A DNA stretch of 36,249 nt from a virus (IMGVR_UViG_3300043410_001642:105120-141368); one strand, 5' to 3'. Positions 241 to 9,951 are shown, counted from the stretch's first letter. Translations and numbers: made by a program. The notes: a model not told the origin generated them from the sequence alone.

Positions 241-840
241 ATGATTAACAATATAGAACTTATTAAACCATTATTAAATTTCTCCGAAGTGGGGGATTTT
301 TATATGTTGTACATCTTTAAACGAAAGAAAGACCAATCAACTGATAAAGCAAACCATCAATCGGTAAGAACAATCAAAACTTATTGTATTGGAGGTATTG
401 AACAATTGGAAGAAAGGTATGATGAAATTAAGCAATTATGTGAGATGTTCAAAGCAAGAGCATACATTCATATTCAGAAACAAAACCATAAGGATGTTGC
501 GATGAATATGATTACTGAAATTGTAACTCGTATTCAATCGGGTCAAATCAATCAGAAAAATGTATTTGATTCAGTAGTTGGACAATTGAAGACAAGTGAA
601 AAGAGATGGATTGTAGATATTGATACAAAGGATTCTAACTATGTGAATGATGTAATCAATTTTATCAATTCTATTAGACCGGAAGGTGATAATGTAGAAA
701 CAACTATTCCAACCCCGAATGGAGTTCATATCATCACAAGAAGATTTGATGTAATGGAATTTAGAAAGAAATATGCTGATGTTGATGTTCAGAAAAAGAA
801 TCCAACATTATTGTTTTACCCAAATAGTTTAGATATATGA
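241..840 (+). CDS. Putative archaeo-eukaryotic primase (AEP)-fold protein
   Basis: WIVDID (hhhDhD) and TPNGVH (sxH) motifs in AEP order. Confidence 0.5.
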   Translation: MINNIELIKPLLNFSEVGDFYMLYIFKRKKDQSTDKANHQSVRTIKTYCIGGIEQLEERYDEIKQLCEMFKARAYIHIQKQNHKDVAMNMITEIVTRIQSGQINQKNVFDSVVGQLKTSEKRWIVDIDTKDSNYVNDVINFINSIRPEGDNVETTIPTPNGVHIITRRFDVMEFRKKYADVDVQKKNPTLLFYPNSLDI

Positions 841-1415
841 AAGTAATTTTTTTAGATCATGATGGTGTGATATGTTTATCATCAGAGTGGGGAGGAAGAC
901 ATAAGAAACAACGAAGATACGGCAGAAAGATGTCTCAAAGTATTATGGAAATGCCAGTTGATGTTAGATTTGATAATTTTAATAAGAAAGCAATTGATGT
1001 ATTAAATGAAATATTGGAAGAAACAAATTGTAGTATTGTTGTCTCATCTGATTGGAAAAGATGGGCAAGTGTTGAGGAGATGGGTGAGTATTATGAATCA
1101 CAGGGTATCAAAATTAAACCAATAGGATTTACTAAATCAATTAATGATTGTGAAGTGCCAGAAGATTTCAGTTTCTCTCGTCAATTTGATTTAGAACAAC
1201 AAAGACACTTTGAAATTCTACAATATCTTAAAGATAATCCACAAATTACTCATTGGGTAGCAGTGGATGATTTGAATATGGGTAAGATTCAGAGCAATAC
1301 ATGGGGAGATATGGAATTGGATTGGGGTTTAGATAACTTTGTTCTAACACCAAGAGGAAGTGAAGGAATTAAACAAAGTGGAATTAAAGAAAAGATTATA
1401 GAATTCTTAAAATAA
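837..1415 (+). CDS. HAD-superfamily phosphatase, Swiss-Army-Knife RNA repair type
   Basis: VIFLDHDGVI motif I, IVVSSDWK motif II, WVAVDD motif IV; ATGA overlap with upstream gene. Confidence 0.8.
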   Translation: MKVIFLDHDGVICLSSEWGGRHKKQRRYGRKMSQSIMEMPVDVRFDNFNKKAIDVLNEILEETNCSIVVSSDWKRWASVEEMGEYYESQGIKIKPIGFTKSINDCEVPEDFSFSRQFDLEQQRHFEILQYLKDNPQITHWVAVDDLNMGKIQSNTWGDMELDWGLDNFVLTPRGSEGIKQSGIKEKIIEFLK

Positions 1416-1420
1416 GAGTT

Positions 1421-2071
1421 ATGAAAATTATATTAAACAAAGGGCAAAAGTTATTCTTTACAAGTGATACACACTATAACCATGCTAACATTTGTTCTGC
1501 TACAACGAAGTGGAAAGACCCGGTTACATTAAGAGAGTTCAAAACATTAGAACATATGAACTCACATTTAGCCGGTAATATCAACGAAGTAGTTAGACAA
1601 GATGATATCCTAATTCACTTAGGTGATTGGAGTTTTGGTGGATTTGAAAGTATAGAACAATTTAGAAATCAAATCGTTTGTCAAAACATCCACATCGTAA
1701 CCGGTAATCATGATCATCACATTGAAAACAATAGAGGTGATTGCCAAAAGTTATTCAGTTCAGTGAGTAAATATATGGAATTGAATGTGAAATGGCCGGT
1801 AGGGCCTGAAATGCACGATGCTAATTTTGTATTGATGCACTTTCCGATAGCAAGTTGGAACAATATGGCAAGGGGAGCAATTCATTTGCATGGACATGTT
1901 CATTTCAATCCTAATATGAGATTGCAAGAAGGTAAGATGATGGATGTGGGATGTGATGGTAATATGTTATATCCAATTGGAATGGGTGAAGTATTACACA
2001 TAATGAAAGATAGACCTATTAAATCTTTATTCAAACAAGACCACCACGAAATTGTGGAAAACTATAAATAA
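1421..2071 (+). CDS. Calcineurin-like metallophosphoesterase
   Basis: SDTH, LGD, GNHD, MHFP, HGHVH motifs. Confidence 0.9.
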   Translation: MKIILNKGQKLFFTSDTHYNHANICSATTKWKDPVTLREFKTLEHMNSHLAGNINEVVRQDDILIHLGDWSFGGFESIEQFRNQIVCQNIHIVTGNHDHHIENNRGDCQKLFSSVSKYMELNVKWPVGPEMHDANFVLMHFPIASWNNMARGAIHLHGHVHFNPNMRLQEGKMMDVGCDGNMLYPIGMGEVLHIMKDRPIKSLFKQDHHEIVENYK

Positions 2072-2077
2072 AAAAAT

Positions 2078-2272
2078 ATGAAATTAGGTTTATTTGATTT
2101 ATTTGATGGGGCAATTGCGGAATTATTAGAAGTAGATGTAGAAACATACATCAGAATAATTGAAGATGAGAATACTACCGATGAGGAGCAAGAGCAAATC
2201 ATTATGGGTATATTAAGCGAAGATGAAGAACAAAAGGTAAAAGCAAAAGAATTATTTAAAAGTAAGTTATGA
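2078..2272 (+). CDS. Small acidic hypothetical protein
   Basis: ORF track 64 aa, D/E rich, operonic spacing. Confidence 0.65.
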   Translation: MKLGLFDLFDGAIAELLEVDVETYIRIIEDENTTDEEQEQIIMGILSEDEEQKVKAKELFKSKL

Positions 2273-2682
2273 AAAATTTAATCTTATTAAGGGGATTGCC
2301 AGGTAGTGGTAAATCTACATTCGCTAAAACTATGTGGAGTGAGTTAGTAGTTTGTGAAGCCGATGATTACTTTGTAGATGAAGAAACTGGTGAATATAAG
2401 TTCAATGCGAGAGATTTACCCAAAGCACACAATTGGTGTAAGTTTAGAGTAGAAACATTTATGAAGGATAATCAGGTGAATGACCAATTCTATCCAAACA
2501 TTGTAGTATCTAATACATTCACACAAGAGTGGGAGATGGAAGACTACTTTAAGTTAGGTGAAAAGTATGGATATAAAGTATTTACCCTAATTGTTGAGAA
2601 TAGACATGGGGGTCTAAATGGACATGGAGTACCAAAAGAAAAGTTGGAGCAAATGAAAGAAAGATTCAATATTAAATTATAG
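2269..2682 (+). CDS. P-loop kinase, polynucleotide kinase-like (AAA_33 type)
   Basis: LRGLPGSGKST Walker A, EADDYF, VSNTFTQEWEM. Confidence 0.8.
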   Translation: MKNLILLRGLPGSGKSTFAKTMWSELVVCEADDYFVDEETGEYKFNARDLPKAHNWCKFRVETFMKDNQVNDQFYPNIVVSNTFTQEWEMEDYFKLGEKYGYKVFTLIVENRHGGLNGHGVPKEKLEQMKERFNIKL

Positions 2683-2685
2683 TAT

Positions 2686-2886
2686 ATGACACTAAAGGAA
2701 TTAAAAGATTTTATCAATAAGTTACCCGATAGGTTCAACGAATATGAAGTAGAGAATGCTGAATATATGGGTGGTGATGAAGAAGATGTAAAATATCGTT
2801 TGGATAAACCCATAATCGCTATATATGTTAGAGAGGATACCAAAGAAATTTTAATAATGAATAAACCAATGGAGGAATATAAATAA
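2686..2886 (+). CDS. Hypothetical protein
   Basis: ORF track 66 aa, tight spacing. Confidence 0.65.
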   Translation: MTLKELKDFINKLPDRFNEYEVENAEYMGGDEEDVKYRLDKPIIAIYVREDTKEILIMNKPMEEYK

Positions 2887-2889
2887 GTT

Positions 2890-3324
2890 ATGACAAACCA
2901 TATAGATGAATTTTTCAATGATGATTTTGTTCCAAATTTTCCACCTAATCAATCCTTTGAATATACAATGATTCCAACACAAAAATTAGAAGCATATAAA
3001 CGATTGTTAGATGATACCTTTCAACTACAATTAAATGCAGGTGATTTTTTCTACTATGCTTGTGCTCAAATGTTGAATGTAGTTTCGGAAGATGTTGATT
3101 GGGTAGTGGAACATATTCAACAATTTGGTGATGAAGGATTATATTCAGCCATGGCGTATATTCAAAACCAACAACCAATCAACCCATATTTAACGATTAA
3201 GTTTACCGATGCAATGAAAGTATTGGTGGATAGAAAGCAAGAGGTCTTTGGTGATATTGATTGGGAATATCATGGATACAAAGAAGATGGCCCATATAGA
3301 ACTATAAACGAAGAATGGTTATGA
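2890..3324 (+). CDS. Hypothetical protein
   Basis: ORF track 144 aa. Confidence 0.7.
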   Translation: MTNHIDEFFNDDFVPNFPPNQSFEYTMIPTQKLEAYKRLLDDTFQLQLNAGDFFYYACAQMLNVVSEDVDWVVEHIQQFGDEGLYSAMAYIQNQQPINPYLTIKFTDAMKVLVDRKQEVFGDIDWEYHGYKEDGPYRTINEEWL

Positions 3325-3740
3325 AACAATTCAATAATAGATACGAAGCAATAAAGGAATTCCGGAACTATCAACCAATGAATGAGGAAGTTGTAGATTT
3401 CTGGACTAAATACGATTGGGGTAAATGGAAAATGGGAGATTGGGTATTGTTTCAGTATATCAAATGTAGAGAGAATAAAATCAGTAGACCTATCTATGGT
3501 ATGTTTGTGGATTTTACAATATGGGATCAGGCATTAGTAGTTCATATAATTGAAAAACAAAGAGCAATGAGATGGCATACTGATATACTAACTAATCCTG
3601 AATTGGATATAACAATGAGATTAGGTGAGTTAGACCCGGAAGTAGAAGCATTTGAATTATGGACTGGTAATATTAAAGTGTTAGGGCATTGGAAAACTAA
3701 ACCAAGAATATCTGAATTAAAAGAGGCATTAAATAAATAA
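3315..3740 (+). CDS. Hypothetical protein (start may be 3321)
   Basis: ORF track 141 aa. Confidence 0.7.
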   Translation: MVMKQFNNRYEAIKEFRNYQPMNEEVVDFWTKYDWGKWKMGDWVLFQYIKCRENKISRPIYGMFVDFTIWDQALVVHIIEKQRAMRWHTDILTNPELDITMRLGELDPEVEAFELWTGNIKVLGHWKTKPRISELKEALNK

Positions 3741-3743
3741 GTT

Positions 3744-4145
3744 ATGAACCCACAATTAGAAGCATTAAAGAAACATTTGGAATCCGATGAGGGTAAAGCA
3801 TCTATGAAACGATTTGTTGAAAAGATGGCTAATAGATATACTGTCAGACAACGATGGGTTGAAAAGATTCATACCTACTATGGTAATGATATTGATTCAC
3901 TAACTGAAAAGTTGATGGATAAGTATTATTCAAAAGAGTATAGTGATAGGGAACATTTTAAATGTAACTGCGAACCAAGAGAACCTCTATTATGGGTGTT
4001 AATGGAATATGCAGAAACTTATGGTAAGAAATGTAAGAACAAAAAGTATTACAATATGTTTACCGGAGTTGCATATTATTTGGGTTCGTATGTAATTCAA
4101 ACAATGCACGGACAAGGTTCAGTAATTAGAATAGATAAAAAATAA
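3744..4145 (+). CDS. Hypothetical protein
   Basis: ORF track 133 aa. Confidence 0.7.
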   Translation: MNPQLEALKKHLESDEGKASMKRFVEKMANRYTVRQRWVEKIHTYYGNDIDSLTEKLMDKYYSKEYSDREHFKCNCEPREPLLWVLMEYAETYGKKCKNKKYYNMFTGVAYYLGSYVIQTMHGQGSVIRIDKK

Positions 4146-4177
4146 TTTGGAAAATTCAATAATTTTTCATATATTTA
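4146..4177 (+). promoter_or_regulatory. Bacteroidota-type sigma-A promoter (-33/-7)
   Basis: TTTGG 4146-4150 and TATATTTA 4170-4177; ATG at 4185. Confidence 0.7.
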
Positions 4178-4184
4178 CAAAGTT

Positions 4185-4478
4185 ATGACACAACAAGAAT
4201 TCAATACAAAATACAAACAATACATACCTGAAGGTTGGGGTGGATTGGAATTCGGTATACCAGAAGTTACTGATTATTTGGATAGTATTATGGATTATGG
4301 ATTAGTGAATCTACCTAATTTCAAATTACATCAAATCAAATTAAAGTTTGGTATGTGTAGATTCTATTTTGAAACATCTATGGAAAATAAAAAGCTAGAA
4401 GCGATTATTGAATTTGGAATAGAACAACAAGTGAATAATATATTAATGAAAATATTAAAAGATGGAAAACTTAAATAG
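4185..4478 (+). CDS. Hypothetical phage protein with QIKLKFGxxRFY motif
   Basis: ORF track 97 aa; motif resembles a common phage QxKEKFGxLRFY family. Confidence 0.65.
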   Translation: MTQQEFNTKYKQYIPEGWGGLEFGIPEVTDYLDSIMDYGLVNLPNFKLHQIKLKFGMCRFYFETSMENKKLEAIIEFGIEQQVNNILMKILKDGKLK

Positions 4479-5589
4479 TGTTTGTTACATTGCGGTAATC
4501 AATGAGATTAGAGCAATTGATGGTGCTGATAACATTGAATTAGCAGTAGCAGGTGGATGGAATTGTATTACTAAAAAAGGAGAACAAAAGGTTGGTGATA
4601 TGACTATGATTGCCACAACTGATGCGGTAATTCCTTTTGAACTTTCCGAAAAGATGGGAGTTACTAACTATTTGAGAAACGGAGGAAGAGTTAAGACTGT
4701 AAAGTTGAGAGGTGTATATTCAGAGTGTTTAATCATTCCTATGAAACATATTCCATTTATGGAAAATTACTATGAAGGTAAGGATATGATGTATGCAATG
4801 AATATCTACAAATATGAACCACCTGTTAAGACCGTTCAATTAGCAAGTGGTAGAAAGATTCGTTATCAAGATAATCCAAACTTTCATGTCTATTACAAAT
4901 TCCCCAACTTAAAGAATGTGCCAGGAATGTTTAATGAGGATGACATGGTTGAAATCACTCGTAAGATTCACGGAACAAATGCCAGATATGGAATTGTTAA
5001 GAAAACTAAATTATCCTTATTTGATAAGATTAAGAAATTCTTACGATTAGCAGATAAGTGGATTGATTATGAATTCGTAGTTGGTTCTCATAATGTAGAA
5101 AAGGGTTCTGATTCACAAGGTTTCTATGATACTAATGTATGGTATGAAATTGAAAAAAAATATGACATCAAAAACAAATTATGGAAATATGTACGAGCAT
5201 ATGAACCAGCGGTAATAGGTGATGGTGTTACCCTATATGGTGAGATTTACGGAGCTGGAATTCAAAAGGGATATGATTATGGGTTGAAAGAGATTGAGTT
5301 CGTAGGATTTGATATAAAGGGTAATGGTGAGTATTTACCTACTTACAATGCTTGGGCAATAATTGAAAAACAATTAGAATTACCATATGTGAAGGTTTTA
5401 CATTATGGCGATTGGTCACAAGAAGTTCAAGATAAGTTTGTATTCAACAACTTCATCAAAGGAACAAAAGTACCACATGAAGGTATTGTAATCAAATACC
5501 ATACAGGTGAAAGACAAAAGATTGCTAAAGTAATCAACCCAGATTATTTAATCTATGGTGAGAAACATAACATTGGGGATTCACATTGA
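4462..5589 (+). CDS. ATP-dependent RNA ligase, Rnl2/DRB0094 family
   Basis: N-terminal ADNIELA..GWNCITKKG module; motif I RKIHGTN, III GEIYG, IIIa FVGFDI, IV EGIVIK, V AKVIN. Confidence 0.88.
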   Translation: MENLNSVCYIAVINEIRAIDGADNIELAVAGGWNCITKKGEQKVGDMTMIATTDAVIPFELSEKMGVTNYLRNGGRVKTVKLRGVYSECLIIPMKHIPFMENYYEGKDMMYAMNIYKYEPPVKTVQLASGRKIRYQDNPNFHVYYKFPNLKNVPGMFNEDDMVEITRKIHGTNARYGIVKKTKLSLFDKIKKFLRLADKWIDYEFVVGSHNVEKGSDSQGFYDTNVWYEIEKKYDIKNKLWKYVRAYEPAVIGDGVTLYGEIYGAGIQKGYDYGLKEIEFVGFDIKGNGEYLPTYNAWAIIEKQLELPYVKVLHYGDWSQEVQDKFVFNNFIKGTKVPHEGIVIKYHTGERQKIAKVINPDYLIYGEKHNIGDSH

Positions 5590-5594
5590 TAATC

Positions 5595-5620
5595 AATGGG
5601 TTAGAAATAACCCATTTTTT
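5595..5620 (+). terminator. Intrinsic terminator
   Basis: AATGGGTT-agaaat-AACCCATT followed by a T run. Confidence 0.75.
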
Positions 5621-5621
5621 A

Positions 5622-5653
5622 TTTGGAAATGTGAGCACTTTTTCGTATATTTG
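5622..5653 (+). promoter_or_regulatory. Bacteroidota-type promoter for the Prs/Nampt/NDT operon
   Basis: TTTGG 5622-5626, TATATTTG 5646-5653. Confidence 0.8.
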
Positions 5654-5672
5654 AATATAATAAAAAGATAAA

Positions 5673-6551
5673 ATGCAGATATTAAATCTAACAAACTTTG
5701 AAGAATCTAACATTAAGTTCTTCATAAATCAATTCCCCGATGGGCAACAATCTATTACCATTGATTTCAAATCGGACATTACCTTAAAGCTAGATAAAAC
5801 AATTCGTATAAAATCCAGAATGAATTCATTTAAGGATGTTGAATTGATTATTTGTGCTAATCAATCTCTGAAAGATTTGGGAGTTGAGAATGTAGAATTA
5901 TATGTTCCCTATTTTTTAGGAGGTAGAAGTGATAGAAGATTTCTAGCCGGTCAAACTAACTATCTTAAGAATGTTATTTGCCCGATTATTAATTCACAAG
6001 GATTCTCAAAAGTTTATGTAGTGGATCCTCATAGTGATGTGTTGGAAGCGTGTTTGAATAACTTTAATAAATTTACTAATAATAGTATAGTTGAATATAC
6101 ATTGGATAAACTTAATGGTCGTTCCTCTCAAACTATGTTAGTATCTCCCGATGCCGGTGCATTAAAAAAGATTTATGATATTGCTAAAGATTTCAATATC
6201 AAAAATGTAGTAACTGCATCAAAGGTTAGAGATATTGAAAGTGGTAATATTGTTAGAACCGAATTACCAACGATGGATTTAACTGATATAGAACAAATTA
6301 TTATTATTGATGATATATGTGATGGAGGTAGAACCTTTATTGAATTGGCTAAAGTAATTAAAGAACAAACGGATAAGCCGATTTATTTGGTTGTTACTCA
6401 TGGTATATTCAGTGGAGGATTTGAAAAGTTAAGTGATGTATTAGATGGTATCTTCTGCACGAATAGTATTAAAAATATTGACTTTGATATTGTTAAAGTT
6501 CAATCAAGACAAAATAGTTCAGATTTCGTAAAACAATTAAATATATTCTAA
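5673..6551 (+). CDS. prs: Ribose-phosphate pyrophosphokinase homolog (candidate NARP1 Adps)
   Basis: FPDGQ, YVPYFLGGRSDRRF, VDPHS, VSPDAGA, PRT motif IIIIDDICDGGRTF. Confidence 0.88.
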   Translation: MQILNLTNFEESNIKFFINQFPDGQQSITIDFKSDITLKLDKTIRIKSRMNSFKDVELIICANQSLKDLGVENVELYVPYFLGGRSDRRFLAGQTNYLKNVICPIINSQGFSKVYVVDPHSDVLEACLNNFNKFTNNSIVEYTLDKLNGRSSQTMLVSPDAGALKKIYDIAKDFNIKNVVTASKVRDIESGNIVRTELPTMDLTDIEQIIIIDDICDGGRTFIELAKVIKEQTDKPIYLVVTHGIFSGGFEKLSDVLDGIFCTNSIKNIDFDIVKVQSRQNSSDFVKQLNIF

Positions 6552-6554
6552 AAT

Positions 6555-8018
6555 ATGAACCCATTATTATTAACCGACGGTTACAAAACAGGTCATCATC
6601 AGCAATATCCTAAAGGAACAACTTTAGTATATTCAAACTTCACACCCCGTTCTAACAAATATGCACCGAAAGGATGTGATGAAGTAGTATCATTCGGGCA
6701 ACAAATGATTATGAAACAAATTCATGAAGCATTTGAAACGGAGTTCTTCTCTAAACCAAAGGATGAAGTATGTGGTGAGATGAAGAAAGAGTTAAGTTTA
6801 TATTTGGGAACTGAATATGATGTTACACATTTTGAGAAGTTACATGATTTAGGATATCTACCTATCAATGTTAAAGGTATTGAAGAAGGAACATTAGTTC
6901 CAATGAAAGTACCTGTATTAACAATCTATAATACATTGCCAGAGTTCTATTGGGTAACAAACTACTTAGAAACAATCATTTCTAACCTATTATGGAAACC
7001 AATGACATCTGCTACAATTGCACACACATATCGTAAGGTATTGACTAAGTGGCAAGAAAAGACAGATGCTGAAAAAGGTTGGTTTGTTGATTGGCAAGGG
7101 CATGATTTCTCTATGAGAGGAATGGATAGTATTGAAGCGACTATTGCAAGTGGATTGGGACACTTAACATCATTTAGTGGAACGGATTCATTACCTGCAA
7201 TTGGTGGAGCAAGAAAATTCTATGGAGAAGAAGGATTCGTTGGAGGTTCAGTAAATGCTACCGAACATAGTGTAATGTGTGCAGGTGGTAAAGAAGATGA
7301 AATAGAAACATTCCGTAGATTATTAAACACATATCCAACTGGCATCTTATCAGTGGTAAGTGATACATGGGATTTATGGAAAGTATGTACCGAACATATC
7401 GTAACTCTTAAAGAAGAAATCTTAGCAAGAGATGGTAAATTGGTTATACGACCTGATAGTGGAGACCCGGTTGATATTCTTTGTGGTAAGATGTTCCCAT
7501 TAGGTGCAACATTGACAGGAAGACAAATCAGCGAAAGTAAAGGTGTTATTCAATTACTATGGGAAGCGTTTGGTGGAACAACAAATGAGCAAGGATATAA
7601 AGTATTAGATTCTCATATCGGTGCAATCTATGGTGATAGTATTACAATTGATAGAGCAAATGAAATTTGTGAAAGATTAGAAAGAAAAGGATTTGCATCT
7701 ACTAATGTTGTATTAGGTATTGGTTCATTCACTTATCAGTATAACACAAGAGATACATTTGGATTCGCAATGAAAGCAACATATGTTGAAGTAAATGGTG
7801 AAGCAAGAGAAATCTTCAAAGACCCAATTACCGATGATGGTACAAAGAAATCTGCCACAGGTTTATTGGCTGTGTCAAGAGATGCATTTGGCAACATTGC
7901 TCTTAATGATAAAGTTGGTTGGGATTTAGAATCATTAGGATTATTGAAACCTATCTATGTGGATGGTGTATTCGGAGAACAAACAACATTAACTGAAATT
8001 AAAAACCGATTAAAATAA
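6555..8018 (+). CDS. nadV: Nicotinamide phosphoribosyltransferase homolog (candidate NARP1 Namat)
   Basis: LLTDGYKTGH, HDFSMRG, ATEHSVMC, SVVSDTWD, VIRPDSGDP, IYGDSIT, FAMKAT, KDPITDDGTKKSATG. Confidence 0.92.
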   Translation: MNPLLLTDGYKTGHHQQYPKGTTLVYSNFTPRSNKYAPKGCDEVVSFGQQMIMKQIHEAFETEFFSKPKDEVCGEMKKELSLYLGTEYDVTHFEKLHDLGYLPINVKGIEEGTLVPMKVPVLTIYNTLPEFYWVTNYLETIISNLLWKPMTSATIAHTYRKVLTKWQEKTDAEKGWFVDWQGHDFSMRGMDSIEATIASGLGHLTSFSGTDSLPAIGGARKFYGEEGFVGGSVNATEHSVMCAGGKEDEIETFRRLLNTYPTGILSVVSDTWDLWKVCTEHIVTLKEEILARDGKLVIRPDSGDPVDILCGKMFPLGATLTGRQISESKGVIQLLWEAFGGTTNEQGYKVLDSHIGAIYGDSITIDRANEICERLERKGFASTNVVLGIGSFTYQYNTRDTFGFAMKATYVEVNGEAREIFKDPITDDGTKKSATGLLAVSRDAFGNIALNDKVGWDLESLGLLKPIYVDGVFGEQTTLTEIKNRLK

Positions 8019-8494
8019 TGGTAGTAGTTAAACCCGGAAACGATAACTTATATTATAGTAAGAATAATGTCAAAATATTTTTAGCAGGTTCTATTGAGAT
8101 GGGAGCAGCTGAAGAATGGCAGAAAGTAATTGAAGATACATTTAGACATAAATCTGAATTAGTGATATTCAATCCTCGTAGAGATGATTGGGATAGTAGT
8201 TGGGAACAAAAAGAATCAAATGGGCAATTCAACTATCAAGTTAATTGGGAGTTGGATAGATTAACCGAATCAGATATCATTTTTATGTATTTTGCACCGG
8301 ATACTAAATCACCTATCAGTTTATTAGAATTAGGATTATATGCTGGAAGTAAGAAAATGATTGTAGTTTGTCCAGATAGTTTTTGGAGAAAGGGTAATGT
8401 TGATATTGTATGTAATAGATATGATATTCCTATTTATGAAACATTGGATAAAGGAATTGGTGCTTTGAGAACCAGATTGAAAGATGTAAGATAA
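8018..8494 (+). CDS. Nucleoside 2-deoxyribosyltransferase-like (NDT superfamily) protein
   Basis: IFLAGSI, FNPRRDDW, QVNWEL, SPISLLELG; ATG overlaps the upstream TAA. Confidence 0.85.
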   Translation: MVVVKPGNDNLYYSKNNVKIFLAGSIEMGAAEEWQKVIEDTFRHKSELVIFNPRRDDWDSSWEQKESNGQFNYQVNWELDRLTESDIIFMYFAPDTKSPISLLELGLYAGSKKMIVVCPDSFWRKGNVDIVCNRYDIPIYETLDKGIGALRTRLKDVR

Positions 8495-9213: not shown

Positions 9214-9477
9214 ATGAACGCATTAATCGTTTATTACATCATTTGTATTATTTATTGTTTCTATCAACTGAATAAGAAATATAATAATAGAGGTGTTGAA
9301 TATGGAACATCACCAGAGTTGGATTCAATTATGGTATTAGTTATGGCATGGGTGTTAGCACCTATTGATGTATCTATTACTTGGATTAGAATGGTGAAAA
9401 ACGCTGAAGAAGCTAGAATTAAACATAGTAAAATAGATACAACTGATTTCAAAACTGAAAAAAGTAATATCTATTAG
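9214..9477 (+). CDS. Small membrane protein
   Basis: Two hydrophobic segments. Confidence 0.7.
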   Translation: MNALIVYYIICIIYCFYQLNKKYNNRGVEYGTSPELDSIMVLVMAWVLAPIDVSITWIRMVKNAEEARIKHSKIDTTDFKTEKSNIY

Positions 9478-9485
9478 AATAAAAT

Positions 9486-9571
9486 AGAGAGGTGGTAGAG
9501 TTGGTTGAATACACCGGTCTTGAAAACCGGCAGATGTAAAAGTCTCGGGGGTTCGAATCCCTCCCTCTCTG
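9486..9571 (+). tRNA. tRNA-Ser (anticodon TGA), type II; CCA not encoded
   Basis: Acceptor AGAGAGG/CCTCTCT, anticodon arm CCGGT-CT TGA AA-ACCGG, long variable arm, GTTCGAATCC T loop, G73. Confidence 0.95.
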
Positions 9572-9579
9572 CACTTAAT

Positions 9580-9786
9580 ATGTTAGAGTTTAAGAAACCA
9601 ATACCAGTAGTAGTAGAAGGAAACAAAGATGGATATGCAATCTATGTTACTGATAGCGGAATGTTTGAAAATGATATTTGGTGTGTGGTACTATGTGAAG
9701 GTGGTGTTGTAAGACATTATCGTAGTGACCAAATCAGAATATTTTTCAATGCGACTTTTGATATAGAAAAGGATAAAACATTGTAA
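9580..9786 (+). CDS. Hypothetical protein (true start after the tRNA)
   Basis: MLEFKKPIPVV...; the track start at 9505 lies inside tRNA-Ser. Confidence 0.7.
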   Translation: MLEFKKPIPVVVEGNKDGYAIYVTDSGMFENDIWCVVLCEGGVVRHYRSDQIRIFFNATFDIEKDKTL

Positions 9787-9951
9787 TGTGTTGGAATAAG
9801 CTCGATAAAAAGAGCTGTGGCAGACAAGCCCTCCTGTCTCGGGGGTGGTGAGAACGAAATAGATTAGTAATACGGGGGATGACCACCAGCTTGCAAGCAC
9901 TTTGTTACTAATTGAATCGCACCGTGGAGTGTTCGAATCCTCCCATTACAG
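9782..9951 (+). tRNA. Oversized 170-nt tRNA-Asp(GTC)-like RNA
   Basis: Acceptor TGTAATG/CATTACA, G73, D stem TTGG/ACAA with 29-nt loop, anticodon arm CCCTC-CT GTC TC-GGGGG, 80-nt paired variable arm, T arm GGAG(T)G-TTCGAAT-CCTCC. Confidence 0.7.

Follow-up and report, generated by a model that had tools for sequence, protein, structure and literature searches.

A 170-nt tRNA-Asp(GUC)-like RNA with a giant branched variable arm belongs to a large, apparently uncatalogued RNA family of Bacteroidota phages and bacteria

Is an RNA that has the complete cloverleaf of a tRNA-Asp(GUC), and in addition an inserted D-loop hairpin and a branched variable arm of 77 nt, an odd decoder of aspartate codons or an RNA with another task? 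The question is raised by a 170-nt element at positions 9782-9951 (+) of a virus sequence (IMGVR_UViG_3300043410_001642:105120-141368; this whole 36,249-nt stretch of DNA is called the window here). An initial annotation described the element as an oversized tRNA-Asp-like RNA and offered several roles for it, of which the broadest, a tRNA-shaped regulatory RNA, fits the evidence presented below. Our analysis places the element in a large, apparently uncatalogued RNA family of Bacteroidota phages and bacteria, which is under strong purifying selection in both. As to what this RNA does, we give about an even chance to a tRNA mimic that is processed like a tRNA and recognised by aspartyl-tRNA synthetase (AspRS), does not decode, uses its arm as a handle for a further partner and, in phages, forms a homodimer.

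The family was delimited as follows. An exact scan of IMG/VR with the 20-nt anticodon arm of the element returned 29 contigs, all with the same architecture. Two more scans of IMG/VR that were free of the anticodon-arm constraint, one with an arm 14-mer (GGGGTAGACCACCA) and the other with the internal-loop motifs plus the T loop, added many further copies among the matches listed; the matches to the 14-mer (at least 120) are mostly due to chance, and only those with a nearby T loop were retained. A covariance model, R1, was built from 22 distinct copies, and members were defined by an R1 score of at least 80 bits, a U1-A72 pair, a GUC-Y-C loop and a branched arm with a GGGG..GACCAC hairpin, all of which are found in the window copy (171.1 bits, E 4e-42). 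About 145 loci score 80-184 bits among the matches listed and the ordinary tRNAs of the same loci 20-48 bits, and R1 separates the two groups cleanly.

Pairing is maintained throughout the family. Over the 100 distinct members from which all family conservation counts given here were taken, 98.0% of the pair cells hold standard pairs, a value that falls to 43-53% once the partners are slid, and 34 of the 43 pairs vary on both sides; none of 500 shuffles reaches the observed values. The acceptor, D, anticodon and T stems and all three arm helices covary. The D-loop hairpin is optional, being found in 57 members with 47 different sequences, of which 50 of the 57 fold to at least 5 bp. The intact compensatory pairing claimed in the initial annotation is thus borne out, and simple decay can be excluded.

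All features listed in the initial annotation are present in the window base for base. The RNA gene runs from U1 to G73; C74 is also encoded (9952), and the CCA end is not. The acceptor stem (9782-9788 with 9944-9950) has 7 bp, with G73 at 9951; six of its seven pairs vary on both sides in the family while remaining 100% paired, and the inner pairs covary. The D region (9789-9828) contains U8 and G9, A14 and A15, G18 and G19 (9819-9820) and position 26 (9828), together with a 3-bp D stem (9791-9793 with 9825-9827), which covaries through U-A, A-U, G-C and C-G, and the inserted hairpin formed by AGCTC (9799-9803) and GAGCT (9812-9816). The anticodon arm (9829-9845) consists of a 5-bp stem (9829-9833 with 9841-9845), all five pairs of which covary, and the loop CUGUCUC (9834-9840), with C32, U33, G34-U35-C36 at 9836-9838, U37 at 9839 and C38 at 9840. 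In the T arm (9926-9943), GGAG(U)G (9926-9931) pairs with CCUCC (9939-9943), leaving U9930 as a bulge, and the T loop UUCGAAU lies at 9932-9938; U54, U55, C56, G57 and A58 are each found in 100/100 members, the T-stem pairs covary, and the one-base bulge in the stem is common to a subset of members. The element therefore has a full 7/5 cloverleaf, a 3-bp D stem of the class II type and all the core nucleotides that make tertiary contacts. Across the family U8, G9, G12-C23, A14, A15, G18G19, U48 and the UUCGA of the T loop are invariant or nearly so, and the core of the four-armed cloverleaf (U8, A14, G18G19, T54-A58) is conserved at 99-100%. The minimum-energy fold of the single sequence gives the proposed shape, with a z-score of -1.6 that is not significant alone.

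In the variable arm (9847-9923), 17 of the 19 pairs of the helices vary on both sides. The arm begins with a base helix between GGTG (9847-9850) and CACC (9920-9923), followed by a bulge (9851-9854), a second helix (9855-9857 with 9917-9919) and an internal loop in which AAUA (9858-9861) faces GAA (9914-9916), with letters conserved at 95-100%. The long helix that comes next has 12 bp (9862-9873 with 9902-9913), extending the 10 bp at 9863-9872/9903-9912 that had been noted initially. It leads to a three-way junction with a small hairpin (9874-9887), made of GGGG, a 4-nt loop ending in GA and CC-A-CC with a bulged A, that is kept in 96-98 of the 100 members. The tip is a perfect 10-nt palindrome, GCUUGCAAGC, at 9889-9898, where the hairpin sequence named in the initial annotation, GCTTGCAAGC, was also located. 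The unpaired parts of the arm, namely the AAUA/GAA internal loop and the small junction hairpin, match the tRNA core in conservation. Much shorter arms are seen in the member L017 and in some of the cellular members.

The initial annotation had anticipated that standard tRNA scanners might miss the element, and this is indeed the case: neither ARAGORN nor Rfam calls anything over 9782-9951, where no match to RF00005 or any other Rfam family was obtained even at E values up to 10, and near the locus both report only the tRNA-Ser(UGA) at 9486-9572. ARAGORN calls none of the 100 members, and Rfam also misses those in loci L007, L024 and L043. A blastn search of 50,697 phage records with the locus and a typical member recovered the tRNA-Ser and a small open reading frame (ORF) but not the element, so that there is no annotated example among these records. 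In the full-text literature we found no published description of such an RNA family, although one may still exist.

Could the RNA nevertheless be seen by the host as a tRNA-Asp? The aspartate identity marks proposed initially (GUC, C38 and G73, next to a U37) are all in the sequence, and the family retains them strictly: G34, U35, C36, C38 and G73 are each found in 100/100 members and G2-C71 in 98/100. The five strong, evolutionarily conserved aspartate determinants are G73, G34, U35, C36 and C38, and bacterial tRNA-Asp also conserves G1-C72 and G2-C71 (PMC9976931). Because all five strong determinants are invariant, host AspRS would be expected to recognise the RNA and would probably charge it. 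The first pair, by contrast with the G1-C72 of bacterial tRNA-Asp, is U1-A72 in all 100 members.

The marks of decoding follow a different pattern. Position 37 is U in 89 members, C in 10 and A in one, and position 33 is U in 72, C in 19, A in eight and G in one. The 354 distinct canonical tRNAs called by ARAGORN in these 100 loci serve as a control: 353/354 of them have U33, versus 72/100 family members, and 354/354 have a purine at position 37, versus 1/100. All 12 canonical tRNA-Asp genes of these loci have the loop YUGUCAC and the pair G1-C72. A decoding elongator combines U33 with purine 37, whereas the window copy has U33 and U37. The family has thus retained the features read by AspRS and lost those required by the ribosome, and its fixed first pair is not that of tRNA-Asp. 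The RNA could still be an odd but working tRNA-Asp that reads GAC and GAU, with insertions that are tolerated or regulatory, and the invariant GUC, the complete cloverleaf and core, the tRNA-like flanks and the U33 of the window copy are all in keeping with this; we strongly doubt it, however, since U33 is lost in 28 members and the purine at 37 in 99, while both are near universal in the neighbouring tRNAs, and since the 95-100% conservation of the arm loops implies that the arm has a function of its own. Moreover, the same phage has a normal tRNA-Asp(GTC), called by ARAGORN at C1:101644-101718. The 141-kb virus record, about 74% complete, ends in the window and has 24 tRNA genes and one copy of the element, which is not needed as an Asp decoder of this phage. 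A canonical tRNA-Asp lies within 4 kb in 15/100 family loci.

The family is not confined to phages. Of 151 sampled Bacteroidota genomes, about 14 have matches (109-212 nt, 78-125 bits), many of which lie on megabase contigs; 151 genomes from each of two further phyla, those holding a Bombella and a Ligilactobacillus genome, gave no match above the scores of ordinary class II tRNAs. The cellular copies keep the cloverleaf, the CCCUC-YUGUCUC-GGGGG anticodon arm and a stretch, GGGGUUGACCAC, that is related to the small junction hairpin of the phage arm; their internal loop differs, a further hairpin is present, and most of them are without a long palindrome. In 9/9 cases tested, their divergent upstream gene encodes an Lrp/AsnC-family regulator, a gene not found in this phage. 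A motif scan of genome contigs gave 17 matches, 12 of which are ordinary tRNAs or chance. The other five are family members; their tiny contigs, which are probably phage fragments, come from the bins of Algoriphagus, Flectobacillus and a Bacteroidia metagenome-assembled genome. One 'cellular' match on a large contig (L245:1501-1650(-), 124.9 bits) carries a palindrome of the phage type, UGCGCGCA, and may lie in a prophage. A Bacteroidota chromosome also has a tandem pair of short relatives of 109-110 nt (L256:1279-1388 and 1501-1609) with the loop CUUUCUC, in which a Glu-type UUC triplet replaces GUC and U37 and C38 are retained.

The invariant U1-A72 pair invites a more specific idea, in which the RNA is an off-ribosome carrier: AspRS would load it with Asp, the amidotransferase GatCAB would read U1-A72 and convert the Asp to Asn, and the anti-decoding features would keep this Asn off Asp codons. 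U1-A72 is the mark read by the tRNA-dependent amidotransferase and confers amidation of Asp-tRNA-Asn, whereas G1-C72, which is strictly conserved in bacterial tRNA-Asp and helps to position the 3' end in E. coli AspRS, blocks it in tRNA-Asp (PMC9976931). The combination of this amidation mark with the Asp determinants, and the Lrp/AsnC-family regulator that adjoins the cellular copies, speak for such a carrier. We nonetheless regard it as improbable, as no gat, asn or aspS gene is seen beside the phage copies and the need of a phage for a carrier of this kind is not evident.

The size of the arm raises the question of whether the element is related to class II tRNAs (Leu, Ser, Tyr, Sec), which like it have a helical arm between positions 44 and 48, a 3-bp D stem, unpaired positions 13 and 22 and A15-U48, and which obtain the best R1 scores outside the family (37-56 bits). 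Their arms are simple hairpins of about 10-25 nt, however, whereas that of the family has 70-140 nt, is branched, conserved in sequence and palindrome-tipped, and is combined with an Asp-type anticodon. From a tRNA-Asp(GUC) of RF00005, with which the element shares the 7/5 cloverleaf, G73, G34, U35, C36, C38 and G2-C71, the T loop, U8, A14, G18G19 and a location among tRNA genes with the same flanks, it differs by U1-A72, the pyrimidine at 37, the variable position 33, the 3-bp D stem, the optional D-loop hairpin and a 77-nt branched arm in place of a loop of 4-5 nt. Seryl-tRNA synthetase (SerRS) reads long arms and ignores the anticodon, and one could imagine that the RNA is charged by SerRS and derives from the adjoining tRNA-Ser, in the manner of an allo-tRNA. 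Its class II D stem, long arm, G73 and G2-C71 would suit SerRS, a tRNA-Ser lies directly upstream in 28/100 loci, and allo-tRNAs, which are also long-armed, occur in metagenomes and phages and have been proposed as suppressors or regulatory RNAs, often carry GUC (Mukai et al., 2017; PMC5389517). Charging by SerRS would leave the invariant G34, U35, C36 and C38 unexplained, though, and the arm is branched and three to four times longer than in tRNA-Ser. Allo-tRNAs are moreover defined by 8/4 or 9/3 acceptor/T branches, as opposed to the 7/5 geometry of the family, in which both stems covary, and they were not reported from Bacteroidetes (PMC5389517). We therefore view this origin as very unlikely.

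The arm tip has a property of its own. It forms a perfect palindrome, 8-12 nt long, in 96/100 members, with more than 20 different sequences that include, besides GCUUGCAAGC of the window, GCCGGCCGGC, GCAUGCAUGC and GCUCGCGAGC. The central 4 nt are always self-complementary, and shuffled tips reach 8 nt or more in only about 4 of 100 cases. When two copies were cofolded, the whole palindrome was paired between the molecules in 8/8 members tried, with all 10 nt engaged in the window copy; RNAcofold was used only to show this pairing between copies, since its dimer energies of -15 to -20 kcal/mol are inflated, every long hairpin being open to representation as an extended duplex. A hairpin does not need a self-complementary loop, whereas an intermolecular duplex does, and we therefore infer from the palindromes that phage copies may homodimerise through the arm tip, making 9889-9898 a candidate dimerisation site. 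Two other contacts of the arm were considered and rejected. An intramolecular kissing interaction between the GUC anticodon and the conserved GAC of the arm would involve a GAC that is located within the small junction hairpin or at its closing pair, and the base 5' of this GAC, a U in the window, does not stay complementary to position 37. A pseudoknot between ACCACC and GGUGG at the arm base is contradicted by the base helix, which covaries with its 3' partner while ACCACC stays constant.

Is the arm retained in the mature RNA? Of the sampled words of the element, 59% and 35% are present in two metatranscriptome libraries, each from a different study. A 320-nt contig of one RNA library (depth 20) is identical to the window over 9818-9942 and reaches part of the upstream ORF, and a 90-nt contig of the other is identical over 9854-9942; the uncovered parts of the window in these contigs carry no weight. 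The RNA libraries also have short, high-depth contigs of other family members. An apparent joint between 9848 and 9923 in a low-depth RNA contig (X21) was discarded: the likeness is 88%, one side has 30 nt and there are unknown letters between, and we take it to reflect a relative whose arm differs rather than splicing. These data bear on the proposal of the initial annotation that the element is a precursor trimmed and sealed by the repair enzymes encoded upstream, in which the arm, and perhaps the D-loop hairpin, would be excised and the halves sealed by the phage kinase, phosphatase and ligase to give a tRNA of 75-90 nt. The RNA-repair set 4-9 kb upstream and the short arms of L017 and some cellular members would accommodate it. 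This proposal is not supported, however, and we consider it extremely unlikely: the contigs identical to the window run through the arm unbroken over 9818-9942, there is no match to an intron or ribozyme family in Rfam, the unpaired arm loops are among the best-conserved positions, which would be expected of a functional portion of the mature RNA and not of an insert that is thrown away, few family loci have repair genes nearby, and the product would retain the pyrimidine at 37 and the variable position 33.

The repair set itself is real. The enzymes identified at 837-5589 are a HAD phosphatase of the RNA-repair type (HAD_SAK_2; 837-1415), a metallophosphoesterase (1421-2071), a P-loop kinase (2269-2682) and an RNA ligase with a PHA02142 OB domain (4462-5589), and they are followed by a phosphoribosyl pyrophosphate (PRPP)-synthetase-like protein, NAMPT and a nucleoside 2-deoxyribosyltransferase-like protein. 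The genes of the block at 837-8494 are co-oriented, and it looks like an island for repair and salvage of nicotinamide adenine dinucleotide (NAD). Downstream of the element lie genes for an adenine-type phosphoribosyltransferase and GroEL.

Such surroundings are what one would expect if the RNA were a decoy for a host anticodon nuclease directed at tRNA-Asp, or a substitute for that tRNA which resists the nuclease. G34, U35, C36 and C38, which the nuclease would read, are retained in the loop, and the pyrimidine at 37 might allow binding without productive cleavage, or repair might be supplied; the arm would add affinity or stability. The location of the gene among phage tRNA genes and in a block whose RNA-repair and NAD-salvage enzymes are characteristic of counter-defence islands, the selection for a pyrimidine at 37 (99/100) and the palindrome of the phage copies, mostly absent from the cellular ones, agree with this explanation, which we still judge unlikely. 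In Bacteroidota, chromosomal relatives under an Lrp/AsnC regulator have this loop too, suggesting that the design predates any use in phage counter-defence, and homologues of the repair genes are found in the fetched flanks of only 3-8 of the 99 other family loci. A decoy would not require the invariant G73, C74 and U1-A72 or the full tRNA core. It also counts against a decoy that we know of no tRNA-Asp-specific nuclease in Bacteroidota.

The immediate neighbours of the element point to its processing. The usual order in the family is a protein of the 87-aa type, then tRNA-Ser, then the giant RNA. In the window these are an 87-aa protein with two hydrophobic segments (9214-9477, +), which belongs to no Pfam family and is the commonest neighbour (32/100 loci), and the canonical tRNA-Ser(UGA) (9486-9572, +). 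The element starts 209 nt past the tRNA-Ser and ends 21 nt before the next gene (9973). Between the tRNA-Ser and the element lies a 68-aa ORF (9580-9786), with its stop codon (9784-9786) within the first bases of the RNA gene; it has 77% DNA identity to a hypothetical gene of an uncultured Caudoviricetes (MW202828), with tblastn matches in 3/99 loci. This 5' overlap and the tight spacing suggest that the element is probably cut from a longer transcript. The position before the gene is U in 87/100 members and C74 is encoded in 100/100, as in the flanks of the neighbouring ordinary tRNAs; if the final base called by ARAGORN is counted as position 74, 315 of the 354 ordinary tRNA genes of the same loci (about 89%) are followed by an encoded C74 and almost none by an encoded CCA, which implies that the phages depend on a CCA-adding enzyme. 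The U-1 and C74 flanks of the family would fit RNase P cleavage and CCA completion, as far as sequence can tell. Upstream of the window, the same virus has a cluster of 23 tRNAs covering most amino acids (G000:C1:96327-104635).

Taken together, these observations lead us back to the non-decoding tRNA mimic. The RNA would be cut from a longer transcript by tRNA-processing enzymes and completed by CCA addition; it would then be bound, and probably charged, by host AspRS, while the relaxed position 33, the pyrimidine at 37 and the sheer size of the arm would keep it off the ribosome or make it perform poorly there. The invariant U1-A72 and the conserved arm would be read by a further partner, candidates being a U1-A72 reader such as an amidotransferase, or another protein. 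Phage copies would act as homodimers via the palindromic tip, and the phage might use the RNA to exploit, or interfere with, the host pathway served by the cellular relative. A narrower version, which we put forward only tentatively, is a dimeric, aminoacylatable, off-ribosome look-alike: an Asp-charged carrier whose arm recruits a second enzyme or a sensor and so ties Asp/Asn status to an output that is regulatory or biosynthetic, with the phage homodimers capturing or saturating the partner.

Several points weigh against the mimic. The invariant U1-A72 departs from the G1-C72 of bacterial tRNA-Asp, and class II synthetases approach tRNA from the variable-loop side, as in the structure of yeast AspRS with tRNA-Asp, so that the giant arm might clash with AspRS. 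Since the window copy has U33, the argument that the RNA does not decode rests on the family and not on this copy. No universal protein partner is encoded within 4 kb on either side in the 100 loci, the best neighbour being present in 32; the lack of an evident phage-encoded partner would also fit an RNA that works with host factors. The RNA-library contigs show presence and an uninterrupted arm, with DNA carry-over possible and strand and ends unreadable. Finally, everything that we propose beyond a conserved structured RNA is deduced from sequence comparison.

To our knowledge, tRNA-shaped RNAs that are charged and do not decode are rare, and each known case has opened a field. Such cases are transfer-messenger RNA (tmRNA), the tRNA-dependent routes to Asn, Gln, Sec and Cys, and the tRNA-like ends of viral RNAs. 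The family described here is large, easily assayed and missed entirely by standard annotation, and it has a clean signature, in which the aspartate determinants are retained and the decoding determinants lost, next to a conserved domain of 70-140 nt and, in phages, a putative dimer site. It bears on the contents of phage 'tRNA clusters', on the use of host tRNA-handling enzymes by phages and on the coupling of an amino-acid regulator to an RNA in Bacteroidota. Even if the element were merely an odd tRNA-Asp, it would reveal that large phages have a whole class of genes to which tRNA detectors are blind.

The nearest functional analogy is offered by rnaC and rnaD (species 1 and 2) of phage T4, stable RNAs of 119-139 nt that lie within the phage tRNA cluster and have no assigned role. 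T4 rnaC ends in a tRNA-like T arm, but neither RNA has a cloverleaf or a GUC loop, and they were rejected as homologues, R1 giving rnaC 12 bits compared to at least 80 for members. Both tmRNA and YrlA (PMC4201824), some of which are phage-encoded, likewise join a tRNA-like module to a large functional domain, but they lack a complete anticodon arm and have other topologies. No match to RF00023 or to the YrlA model was obtained at E values up to 10, and ARAGORN reports no tmRNA in this phage. Two family loci contain a second kind of oversized, tRNA-framed RNA of 120-148 nt (L024:5065-5185(-), L024:5270-5412(-), L007:7683-7830(-) and L007:6143-6262(-)); these RNAs share an acceptor stem, a class II D arm (UGGCGAAAUUGGUAGACGC) and a T arm around non-homologous middles with no obvious anticodon arm, and only one of them reaches the Rfam threshold for tRNA (37 bits).

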